NCBI RefSeq assembly: GCF_003334315.1
Contig: NZ_QOWR01000012.1
From: Escherichia coli
GTDB taxonomy: Bacteria > Pseudomonadota > Gammaproteobacteria > Enterobacterales > Enterobacteriaceae
Direction: 5' to 3' (one strand)
Length of the DNA: 64,000 nt
Part shown: one piece after another, positions 19,892-44,978 of the stretch
Layout: each line of letters starts with the position of its first letter
Numbering within the stretch: position 1 is the stretch's first letter
Translations under genes and position numbers: made by a program
Notes under the pieces: generated by a model
Database searches by the model: none
Seen by the model: the letters and a program-made list of their open reading frames with translations, nothing else
Told to the model about the DNA's origin: nothing

Positions 19892-20374
19892 TTACTTCTC
19901 TATAGCCAATTGTTCGCGCAACTCCATTAAAAGGTAGCCCAGTCGATTCTTGCCCTTACCATTACCACCGTCTCCCCAGTAAGCATCGTTTTCCGTATGC
20001 TCAACCAGTTTTGCGGGCGCGGTTGCCTGCAAGAGCGCACGCAGTTCTGCATGCTGTTCGAATTTAGCGCGAAGTGCTTTTCGCATCACCTGTTCTTTGA
20101 CCGACTCCCAGTTTTTACGCAGAGGCTTAGAACGATCGCGCCCCATGCGTGCGGCGACCATAGGGGAAGAAACCCGACGGATCTCTTCGCGGTATTTTTC
20201 ATCAAGGAATTTTTGTGCCTGAAAATAGTGTTCTGAGGTGGGCCAGGTTTTCCCGTCAACCTTGATGGGCCAGGCGGCAAAGTTAGAAAAATCACCGTAG
20301 TCATCGCTGGTGCTGTAGAAATTTATGATGGTGTCTTGCATGACGTGTTGGATCCTTTGTGCTCGAACGGGCAT
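19892..20374 (-). CDS. ybiA: NADAR/DUF1768-family N-glycosidase YbiA
   Basis: 160-aa ORF, sequence recognised. Confidence 0.88.
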   Translation of the reverse strand: MPVRAQRIQHVMQDTIINFYSTSDDYGDFSNFAAWPIKVDGKTWPTSEHYFQAQKFLDEKYREEIRRVSSPMVAARMGRDRSKPLRKNWESVKEQVMRKALRAKFEQHAELRALLQATAPAKLVEHTENDAYWGDGGNGKGKNRLGYLLMELREQLAIEK

Positions 20375-20459
20375 TAAACCGCATTATGTTGGTGGTTATT
20401 GCGAGCCGCTTTCCAGAAACAGAAAAACCATTACCCCTGAAAACCGAAAAATGCCACAA

Positions 20460-20479
20460 TATTGGCTGTTTATACAGTA
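20460..20479 (+). promoter_or_regulatory. LexA box of dinG (non-canonical left half-site)
   Basis: tattggctgtttatACAGta; right half matches the SOS consensus; directly upstream of the dinG start. Confidence 0.75.
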
Positions 20480-20493
20480 TTTCAGGTTTTCTC

Positions 20494-22644
20494 ATGGCAT
20501 TAACCGCCGCGCTTAAAGCGCAAATTGCCGCCTGGTATAAGGCGCTTCAGGAACAGATCCCCGACTTTATTCCCCGTGCGCCGCAGCGGCAGATGATTGC
20601 GGACGTCGCCAAAACGCTGGCCGGAGAAGAAGGGCGGCATCTGGCGATTGAAGCCCCCACCGGCGTTGGGAAAACGCTCTCCTATTTGATCCCCGGCATC
20701 GCCATTGCCCGCGAAGAGCAAAAAACGCTGGTGGTGAGTACCGCCAACGTGGCGTTGCAGGATCAGATTTACAGCAAAGATTTACCGCTGCTGAAAAAGA
20801 TCATTCCCGATCTTAAATTCACTGCCGCTTTTGGGCGTGGGCGCTACGTTTGCCCGCGTAATCTGACGGCGCTCGCCAGCACTGAGCCCACGCAACAGGA
20901 TCTGCTGGCGTTTCTTGACGACGAACTGACGCCAAATAATCAGGAAGAGCAAAAACGTTGTGCGAAGCTGAAGGGCGATCTCGACACTTATAAATGGGAT
21001 GGTCTGCGCGATCATACTGATATCGCTATAGATGACGATCTCTGGCGTCGTTTAAGTACCGACAAAGCCAGCTGCCTCAACCGCAACTGTTACTACTATC
21101 GTGAATGCCCGTTTTTTGTTGCTCGTCGGGAGATTCAGGAAGCGGAAGTGGTGGTGGCAAACCATGCGCTGGTGATGGCGGCGATGGAAAGCGAAGCGGT
21201 ATTGCCTGACCCGAAAAATTTACTGCTGGTGCTGGACGAAGGCCATCACCTGCCGGATGTGGCGCGGGATGCGCTTGAGATGAGCGCCGAAATCACCGCG
21301 CCGTGGTATCGGCTACAGCTGGACTTGTTCACGAAACTGGTCGCTACCTGCATGGAGCAGTTTCGCCCGAAGACCATCCCACCGCTGGCGATCCCTGAAC
21401 GTTTGAATGCGCATTGTGAAGAGTTGTATGAGCTTATCGCCTCGTTAAACAACATTCTCAATCTCTACATGCCTGCCGGGCAGGAGGCAGAGCACCGTTT
21501 TGCGATGGGCGAACTGCCAGATGAAGTGCTGGAGATCTGCCAGCGGCTGGCAAAACTCACCGAGATGCTGCGTGGCCTGGCGGAGTTATTTCTTAACGAT
21601 TTAAGTGAGAAAACCGGCAGCCATGACATTGTACGTCTGCATCGGTTGATTTTGCAGATGAACCGCGCGTTGGGGATGTTCGAGGCGCAAAGCAAACTCT
21701 GGCGGCTGGCTTCGCTGGCGCAATCTTCCGGTGCACCGGTGACCAAATGGGCGACGCGGGAAGAGCGCGAAGGGCAGCTACACCTCTGGTTTCACTGCGT
21801 GGGAATACGTGTCAGCGATCAGCTGGAAAGGCTGCTGTGGCGCAGTATTCCGCACATTATTGTCACCTCCGCAACCTTGCGTTCGCTGAACAGTTTTTCG
21901 CGTTTGCAGGAGATGAGTGGTCTGAAAGAGAAAGCGGGCGACCGTTTTGTGGCGCTGGATTCCCCCTTTAACCACTGCGAACAGGGCAAAATTGTTATTC
22001 CCCGGATGCGCGTTGAGCCTTCCATCGACAACGAAGAGCAGCATATTGCCGAAATGGCGGCCTTTTTCCGTAAGCAGGTGGAGAGCAAAAAACATCTCGG
22101 TATGTTGGTACTGTTTGCCAGCGGACGGGCGATGCAGCGCTTTCTCGACTATGTGACGGATTTACGTCTGATGTTGCTGGTTCAGGGCGATCAGCCGCGT
22201 TACCGTTTAGTTGAACTGCACCGCAAACGCGTCGCCAACGGTGAGCGCAGCGTGCTGGTGGGCTTACAGTCATTTGCCGAAGGGCTTGATTTGAAAGGTG
22301 ATCTGCTCAGCCAGGTGCATATCCACAAAATCGCTTTTCCGCCCATCGACAGCCCGGTGGTGATCACCGAAGGGGAATGGCTGAAAAGCCTCAACCGCTA
22401 TCCGTTTGAGGTGCAAAGCCTGCCGAGCGCCTCGTTTAACCTGATTCAGCAGGTTGGGCGACTGATTCGAAGCCACGGTTGCTGGGGCGAAGTGGTTATC
22501 TACGACAAACGCTTGCTGACCAAAAATTATGGCAAGCGACTACTGGATGCATTACCGGTATTTCCGATAGAGCAACCGGAAGTCCCTGAAGGTATAGTTA
22601 AAAAGAAAGAAAAAACGAAATCCCCACGCCGTCGGCGGCGTTAA
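20494..22644 (+). CDS. dinG: ATP-dependent DNA helicase DinG (Fe-S, XPD-like)
   Basis: Start MALTAALKAQ (716 aa); Walker A APTGVGKT; DEGH motif. Confidence 0.93.
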   Translation: MALTAALKAQIAAWYKALQEQIPDFIPRAPQRQMIADVAKTLAGEEGRHLAIEAPTGVGKTLSYLIPGIAIAREEQKTLVVSTANVALQDQIYSKDLPLLKKIIPDLKFTAAFGRGRYVCPRNLTALASTEPTQQDLLAFLDDELTPNNQEEQKRCAKLKGDLDTYKWDGLRDHTDIAIDDDLWRRLSTDKASCLNRNCYYYRECPFFVARREIQEAEVVVANHALVMAAMESEAVLPDPKNLLLVLDEGHHLPDVARDALEMSAEITAPWYRLQLDLFTKLVATCMEQFRPKTIPPLAIPERLNAHCEELYELIASLNNILNLYMPAGQEAEHRFAMGELPDEVLEICQRLAKLTEMLRGLAELFLNDLSEKTGSHDIVRLHRLILQMNRALGMFEAQSKLWRLASLAQSSGAPVTKWATREEREGQLHLWFHCVGIRVSDQLERLLWRSIPHIIVTSATLRSLNSFSRLQEMSGLKEKAGDRFVALDSPFNHCEQGKIVIPRMRVEPSIDNEEQHIAEMAAFFRKQVESKKHLGMLVLFASGRAMQRFLDYVTDLRLMLLVQGDQPRYRLVELHRKRVANGERSVLVGLQSFAEGLDLKGDLLSQVHIHKIAFPPIDSPVVITEGEWLKSLNRYPFEVQSLPSASFNLIQQVGRLIRSHGCWGEVVIYDKRLLTKNYGKRLLDALPVFPIEQPEVPEGIVKKKEKTKSPRRRRR

Positions 22645-22671: not shown

Positions 22672-23634
<963 letters not shown>

Positions 23635-43167: not shown

Positions 43168-43385
43168 GTTAAGCGAGATTTTGTGCCTGGCAGGCCATTG
43201 GGTTGAGAATATTAGAGTATTGGAAGCGCATTATAAGTTCATTCCAGCTCACAGTGAAATCAGATGTGTACGAAATCACATTTTTTGCCTTTGGCTTGAG
43301 TGTAGACCTTAAGCGAGGAGCAGGATCTTCTTTCAGACTTATGGCATAATGCGCGGTTTGTCATATCTCTTTTCAGGATACGCCT

Positions 43386-44978
43386 GTGTTAGTTTCCAGT
43401 AACGTCACCATGCAGTTCGGCAGTAAGCCGTTGTTTGAAAACATTTCCGTCAAATTTGGCGGCGGCAACCGTTACGGCCTGATTGGCGCGAACGGTAGTG
43501 GTAAATCCACCTTTATGAAGATCCTCGGCGGCGACCTTGAGCCGACGCTGGGTAACGTTTCCCTCGATCCCAACGAGCGCATTGGTAAACTGCGTCAGGA
43601 TCAGTTTGCCTTTGAAGAGTTCACTGTGCTGGATACGGTGATCATGGGGCATAAAGAGTTGTGGGAAGTGAAGCAGGAGCGCGACCGCATCTATGCTTTG
43701 CCGGAAATGAGTGAAGAAGACGGCTATAAAGTGGCCGATCTGGAAGTTAAATACGGCGAAATGGACGGTTACTCTGCGGAAGCTCGCGCCGGTGAACTGT
43801 TGCTTGGCGTGGGAATTCCAGTGGAACAGCACTACGGCCCGATGAGTGAAGTTGCTCCTGGCTGGAAGCTGCGTGTGCTTCTGGCGCAGGCGCTGTTTGC
43901 TGATCCGGATATTCTCCTGCTCGACGAACCGACCAACAACCTCGACATCGACACCATTCGCTGGCTGGAACAGGTGCTGAACGAGCGTGACAGCACCATG
44001 ATCATCATCTCGCACGACCGTCACTTCCTTAACATGGTCTGTACCCACATGGCGGATCTGGATTACGGCGAGCTGCGCGTTTATCCGGGTAACTACGATG
44101 AGTACATGACGGCGGCGACCCAGGCGCGTGAACGTCTGCTGGCCGATAACGCCAAGAAGAAAGCGCAGATTGCTGAGTTGCAATCTTTCGTTAGCCGCTT
44201 TAGCGCCAACGCCTCGAAATCTCGCCAGGCAACTTCGCGCGCGCGCCAGATTGATAAAATCAAACTGGAAGAGGTGAAAGCCTCCAGCCGTCAGAACCCG
44301 TTCATCCGTTTTGAACAGGATAAGAAACTGTTCCGTAACGCGCTGGAAGTGGAAGGTCTGACCAAAGGGTTTGATAACGGTCCGCTGTTTAAAAATCTCA
44401 ACCTGCTGCTGGAAGTGGGTGAAAAACTGGCGGTACTGGGTACCAACGGCGTCGGTAAATCAACGCTGCTGAAAACGCTGGTGGGCGATCTGCAACCGGA
44501 CAGCGGCACCGTAAAATGGTCTGAGAACGCGCGCATTGGTTACTATGCTCAGGACCACGAATATGAGTTTGAAAATGATCTGACCGTGTTCGAATGGATG
44601 AGCCAGTGGAAGCAGGAAGGCGATGACGAGCAGGCGGTACGCAGTATTCTCGGTCGTTTGCTGTTCAGCCAGGACGACATCAAAAAGCCAGCTAAAGTGC
44701 TTTCCGGTGGGGAAAAAGGGCGGATGCTGTTTGGTAAGTTAATGATGCAGAAGCCGAACATTCTGATCATGGACGAACCGACCAACCACCTGGATATGGA
44801 ATCCATTGAGTCGCTGAACATGGCACTGGAACTGTATCAGGGCACGCTGATCTTTGTTTCACACGACCGTGAGTTCGTAAGCTCCCTGGCGACCCGCATT
44901 CTGGAAATCACCCCGGAACGCGTGATCGACTTTAGCGGTAATTACGAAGATTACCTGCGTAGTAAAGGGATCGAGTAA
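43386..44978 (+). CDS. ybiT: ABC-F family ATPase YbiT
   Basis: GTG start; two Walker A motifs ([18 protein letters not shown]); 530 aa; hairpin tcaccccgatactgtcggggtga follows the stop. Confidence 0.92.

Follow-up and report, generated by a model that had tools for sequence, protein, structure and literature searches.

Specific binding of LexA is described as requiring two trimers, CTG and CAG, placed exactly 10 bp apart and each occupied by one LexA monomer. The operator of dinG is treated in the literature as a recognised exception to this CTG-N10-CAG rule. It was named the "asymmetric dinG operator" by Lewis and Mount (1992; J Bacteriol 174:5110), who, according to later citations, reported LexA binding. 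A MEME alignment of the SOS boxes preceding genes found to be UV-induced with tiling arrays (PMC3009722) also contains this 20-mer. Culyba et al. (2018) classified the dinG promoter as "early", with a low threshold (low ED50) and full derepression at low UV dose; across the 28 operators of that study, the LexA off-rate correlates with both ED50 and timing. The degenerate half-site, which an earlier note on the DNA analysed here offered as a fresh observation, had thus been published and named in 1992, and its heterology index (HI), timing class and fold induction are all in print as well. What is added here is a comparison across the family, the boxes of outgroup species and the overlap of the operator with a putative -10 element and discriminator.

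In the stretch of E. coli chromosome under study (64,000 nucleotides; hereafter the window), the operator reads TATTGGCTGTTTATACAGTA and occupies positions 20460 to 20479, as seen directly in the sequence and in exact agreement with the published dinG SOS box. Neither the box nor its half-sites are assigned a strand. It ends 14 nt before the ATG (20494) and therefore lies in the promoter region, close to the gene start. The dinG coding sequence (20494 to 22644, plus strand) specifies a 716-aa ATP-dependent DNA helicase starting with MALTAALKAQ, as identified from the open reading frame, its translation and the RefSeq annotation of identical DNA. It is followed by ybiB (22672 to 23634, plus strand; open reading frame and annotation), which is described in the literature as co-transcribed with dinG under LexA control. 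On the other side, ybiA, encoding a NADAR N-glycosidase, is divergent from dinG (19892 to 20374, minus strand; open reading frame and RefSeq annotation).

The two halves of the box differ sharply in quality. The right half-site, TTATACAGTA (20470 to 20479), ends in ACAGTA (box positions 15 to 20), the same as in the LexA consensus, TACTGTATATATATACAGTA. The left half-site, TATTGGCTGT (20460 to 20469), has TTGG at positions 3 to 6 where the consensus has CTGT: a T replaces the conserved C at position 3 (20462) and a G replaces the T at position 6. Consequently, the box departs from the CTG-N10-CAG pattern, having the right CAG and a TTG as left trimer. HI values were calculated with a symmetrised Berg-von Hippel matrix, for which 20 published boxes of E. 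coli were taken from PMC3009722 (Table 4, 18 boxes; Table 7, two boxes, whose outer bases were supplied separately). The rebuilt matrix reproduces published HI values with r = 0.988. The dinG box scores 9.10 (11.44 once dinG is removed from the matrix) and the uvrB box 4.91, as compared to 8.65 and 4.26, respectively, in the list of Courcelle (2001) as tabulated in PMC11002266 (Table S2). All three dinG values are below 15, approximately the usual cut-off for LexA boxes and the threshold quoted by the ciprofloxacin study considered below. The left half incurs most of the penalty (8.11, compared with 0.99 for the right half, entirely from position 11), with main contributions from the C to T change at position 3 (3.27) and the A to C change at position 7 (2.83). 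The matrix predicts that restoring the C at position 3 would lower the index from 9.10 to 5.83. These results bear out the earlier note as to the location and identity of the box, the consensus right half and the aberrant left half. The index is about twice as high for dinG as for uvrB, which agrees, like the early, low-threshold class of Culyba et al. (2018), with its prediction that LexA would bind dinG more weakly.

The uvrB box, AACTGTTTTTTTATCCAGTA (857 to 876, likewise without strand), has its CTG-N10-CAG intact and is canonical, as the earlier note had it. It is the best-scoring 20-mer in the 64-kb window, and the dinG box is the second, whether or not dinG is included in the matrix. 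Shuffled windows are expected to contain 0.035 sites with an HI of 9.10 or less and 0.195 with an HI of 11.44 or less; the resemblance of the dinG box to a LexA operator is beyond chance. Searches for CTGT-N8-ACAG, or for the consensus with up to three mismatches, matched nothing in the window. As these searches also missed the uvrB box, they are too stringent to inform. Two lesser sites were recorded. The 3′ end of dinG contains a candidate box, TACTGGATGCATTACCGGTA (22541 to 22560, HI 12.65), some 110 bp ahead of ybiB. With an HI of 15 to 24 in other species, this site is not maintained, and it was rejected as a probable chance match in coding sequence. The fourth-best LexA-like site of the window, GCCTGTGTTAGTTTCCAGTA (43382 to 43401, HI approximately 13), retains CTG-N10-CAG and overlaps with the GTG at which an open reading frame of 530 aa starts. 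The N-terminus of the latter product looks like YbiT.

Conservation of the dinG box was assessed in the dinG loci of 80 Enterobacteriaceae species (74 distinct sequences), anchored on the box. The box is found at the orthologous promoter in all 80 species, 13 to 16 nt before the ATG, and its commonest form, TAGTGGCTGTTTATACAGTA, is shared by 61 of them. The ACAG of the right half and the T and G at positions 4 and 5 of the left half are invariant in the 74 distinct sequences, and so is the segment CTGTTTATACAG. Position 3 behaves differently: it is a G outside Escherichia, a T in E. coli, Escherichia sp. MOD1-EC7003 and E. albertii (loci L005-L007) and an A in E. whittamii. C is absent from this position in all 80 species, as it is from every complete E. 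coli genome searched. Within E. coli, approximately 5400 genomes share an identical 61-bp sequence around the box, and a 30 bp segment comprising the putative -10 element and the box finds a match in 5409 of 5426 complete genomes (megablast, 28-base exact word). One E. coli-like assembly (GCA_049893985.1) has dinG split into several open reading frames and a box spacer lengthened by one T, CTGTTTTATACAG; both anomalies probably result from assembly error. A separate feature was noticed in the species outside Escherichia (loci L008-L083), where the presence of a G at position 3 makes the sequence equivalent to 20453-20466 a perfect inverted repeat, GCCAC-AATA-GTGGC. The repeat spans the putative -10 element and the left half-site and is broken in Escherichia (GCCAC...TTGGC).

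A 1.1 kb segment surrounding the box has a match in 5422 of the 5426 complete E. coli genomes. The DNA to the left of the dinG promoter (19892 to 20400) is variable: in some 2000 E. coli genomes, coverage of the 1.1-kb query falls below 80%, and many strains have ybiA truncated or replaced next to an intact box. For example, the O18:H1 strain CFSAN067215 has only a truncated NADAR pseudogene for ybiA, and the effector gene espX2 is found in its place in the O145:H28 strain RM13516; both strains retain an intact box and conserved promoter block. In E. coli strain TUM13064 (NZ_CP135653.1; positions 616-2500 of locus L001), the dinG SOS box itself is interrupted by an ISEc53-like element of the ISL3 family, which carries a ClbS/DfsB passenger gene. 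The 8-bp target duplication, CTGTTTAT, corresponds to box positions 7 to 14 (20466 to 20473 in the window). The element thus separates the promoter and the left half from the right half, which stays beside dinG, and both box remnants have an HI above 24. Truncated matches of this kind were obtained with 6 of about 5420 genomes.

The conservation profile also points to the likely position of the promoter. Upstream of 20452 little is conserved, except for a TT at 20431-20432 (T in 59 and 72 of the 74 sequences, respectively). Conservation jumps at 20452 with an invariant TG, followed by a free base, then by CACAAT and then by the whole box. The bases equivalent to A-11, A-9, A-8 and T-7 of the CACAAT hexamer are invariant in the 74 sequences. 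Thus, TG is present one base before the hexamer, A-11 and T-7 are kept and the -35 region shows little conservation, a combination from which we infer an extended -10 promoter, TGcCACAAT (20452 to 20460, plus strand), whose last T would be position 1 of the box. The TT would belong to a possible weak -35 element, TTACCC (20431 to 20436, plus strand), located 18 bp upstream from the -10 hexamer and conserved at these two bases only. In TGn promoters the -35 element is dispensable and an 18-bp spacer is common. The promoter assignment is drawn from conservation; a simple scan for the sigma-70 consensus returned no classic -35/-10 pair at dinG.

Outgroup DinG proteins were obtained by searching 50%-identity cluster representatives. 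A DinG of the Rosenbergiella/Tatumella type (63% identical) is preceded by the box TACTGTGTAAAAATACAGGC (HI 7.6), and that of a second lineage (53% identical) by TACTGGCTAAAAACACAGCT (HI 10.4), itself preceded by TGgCAAAAT. Both boxes carry a canonical CTG at the aligned left-trimer position, opposite CAG, and in a MAFFT alignment both coincide column for column with the E. coli dinG box and its TG. A shared GGCTGTTT had suggested that the box was displaced by 14 bp between the Rosenbergiella-type locus and E. coli; this alignment, together with the second outgroup, disposed of the idea, as box aligns on box. No LexA-like site was found upstream of dinG in Edwardsiella piscicida (GCA_000711175.1), in which the gene is called as two overlapping pieces, or upstream of two distant DinG representatives (approximately 40% identity). 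Most simply, the loss of the C at position 3 would be a derived state common to the Enterobacteriaceae sampled.

Taken together, we consider it very probable that LexA controls the dinG(-ybiB) promoter through this 20-mer, an asymmetric operator forming a weaker, faster-dissociating LexA complex and allowing early, about 3-fold derepression. One monomer of the LexA dimer would sit on the consensus right half-site (ACAGTA) and the other on a left half-site that offers the T at position 4 and the G at position 5 without the normally invariant C at position 3. Such a lopsided site would release LexA more readily, and hold it less tightly, than a box with both CTG trimers. Since the operator would span approximately -7 to +13 of the putative extended -10 promoter, bound LexA would occlude RNA polymerase; upon DNA damage, cleavage of LexA would derepress dinG early and at low dose, albeit only about 3-fold. 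The positions of the -10 element and of the transcription start, the occlusion and the equivalence of position 3 with position -5 of the discriminator are what we infer here from the sequence. The early, low-dose derepression of dinG fits a weak or fast-dissociating operator. Counted against this explanation are the TTG left trimer, a lexA dependence of just 1.7-fold in the azidothymidine (AZT) data presented below and the outcome of the sigma-70 scan.

An alternative to the asymmetric operator, which we regard as unlikely, is that the left half is kept merely as promoter DNA (-7T, discriminator and start), LexA being anchored by the right half while its second monomer binds non-specifically. 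Box position 1 would indeed coincide with the putative -7T and positions 2 to 7 with the discriminator, the right half-site is perfect, and position 3 is a G, a T or an A but never the C that LexA prefers. However, the remaining bases of the CTG trimer, T4 and G5, are invariant, the nTGG left arm is that of the ruvA and cho boxes (CTGG) save for its first base, and the outgroup homologues have the full CTG. Furthermore, secondary sources refer to the 20-mer as the characterised operator. Far less probable is a different register, in which an inner palindrome with a 4-bp spacer, CTGT-TTAT-ACAG (20466 to 20477), would be the real site and TATTGG irrelevant. This reading draws on the invariance of CTGTTTATACAG, unexpected in an SOS box, whose AT-rich spacer usually varies; the same invariance is equally explained if the segment is the transcription start region. 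Against the inner palindrome stand the need of LexA operators for trimers exactly 10 bp apart and the scarcity of other registers, no alternative 20-mer between 20380 and 20500 having an HI below 16. Moreover, the aligned outgroup box is CTG-N10-CAG and lacks the inner CTGT (TACTGGCTAAAAACACAGCT). The column-for-column alignment of the outgroup boxes implies that the register of Lewis and Mount is the homologous one and that the inner CTGT-N4-ACAG palindrome is not ancestral. Finally, the idea that the dinG site is a chance resemblance devoid of regulatory role, for which one might invoke the empty strict pattern searches, has a negligible standing, as 0.04 to 0.2 sites are expected per window at the dinG score, the box is one of only two such sites, and family-wide conservation, published characterisation and damage induction effectively refute it.

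If the asymmetric operator is accepted, one may ask why its left arm lacks the C. Should the -10 hexamer end at 20460, box position 3 (20462) would be position -5 of the discriminator. According to a review of Haugen et al. (2006), a G at -5 lengthens the half-life of the open complex 10- to 50-fold relative to a C. The base preferred by LexA would then be the worst for RNA polymerase, and the G of the Enterobacteriaceae consensus its best. We tentatively raise the possibility, which we hold to be less than even, that the asymmetry has been maintained, as a compromise between the strength of the promoter and that of the operator, rather than arising by decay. On such a reading, an ancestral, canonical operator, its C still present in the Rosenbergiella-type and the second outgroup lineage, would have acquired a G at the root of the Enterobacteriaceae, and this G would have given way to T or A in Escherichia; the phylogenetic pattern reflects only a few substitution events. 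If the compromise is real, repressor affinity has been traded for promoter strength, and dinG has been fixed as a leaky, early, low-amplitude SOS gene. Three small additions, namely that no species of the family sampled has a C at position 3, that the outgroup boxes are canonical and that this position would fall on -5 of the discriminator, may bear on how overlapping promoter and operator constrain the tuning of SOS genes.

Published expression data allow dinG and uvrB to be compared directly. In RNA-seq analysis of AZT-treated cells, dinG is induced 3.2-fold and uvrB 3.6-fold, with a lexA (lexA3) dependence of 1.7-fold and 2.0-fold, respectively. In a ciprofloxacin time course, the maximum log2 fold change is 1.69 for dinG (approximately 3.2-fold) and 1.35 for uvrB (approximately 2.5-fold). 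In Salmonella exposed to nalidixic acid, the increase is 10.6-fold for dinG (HI 10.08) and 14.1-fold for uvrB (HI 5.66). Thus, the two genes are both modestly induced, and to a roughly equal extent. A modest SOS induction of dinG, as anticipated in the earlier note, is therefore confirmed by the approximately 3-fold values with AZT and ciprofloxacin, whereas the contrast with uvrB that it also predicted finds no support in the three data sets. Equal affinity and equal induction at the two promoters had been named there as the outcome that would tell against its view; the induction is indeed about equal, which is half of that outcome.

The near-equality of induction can be traced to the architecture of the uvrB promoter region rather than to box quality. 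The gene has three promoters, and the LexA box lies between the -35 and -10 elements of one of them only, uvrBp2. In addition, uvrB is co-repressed by DnaA, and deletion of lexA derepresses it only about 3-fold. The authors of the ciprofloxacin study also point to uvrB architecture. In the window, the last two bases of the uvrB box are also the first two of a perfect -10 hexamer, TATAAT (875 to 880), and a promoter-like sequence, TTGGCA-17-TAAAAT (884 to 912), is found directly downstream of it; both agree with the published arrangement of uvrB p2 and p1. With an approximately 2-fold difference in HI accompanied by about equal induction, box quality alone is no predictor of the induction ratio. 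For genome scans the lesson is a negative one: the quality of an SOS box does not, by itself, forecast how strongly a gene will be induced.

The dinG operator is a textbook exception to the CTG-N10-CAG rule and illustrates that one poor arm does not prevent LexA from using an operator. The operator of E. coli K-12 described by Lewis and Mount is the identical 20-mer in front of the same gene, with no difference from the site considered here. The uvrB box is, like the dinG box, a single 20-bp LexA operator of a repair gene in the window, and each gene is induced about 3-fold. Unlike the dinG box, it keeps both CTG and CAG (HI 4.3 to 4.9, versus 8.65 to 9.1), and it lies 74 nt from the uvrB ATG (951) at one of three promoters, whereas the dinG box, only 14 nt from its ATG, serves what is apparently the sole promoter. 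The ruvA and cho boxes share with dinG the G at position 6 (CTGG arm) but retain the C at position 3. The putative box of IncC higBA has the TTG trimer of dinG and has been expressly compared with dinG in the literature; unlike in the dinG box, its right arm deviates too.
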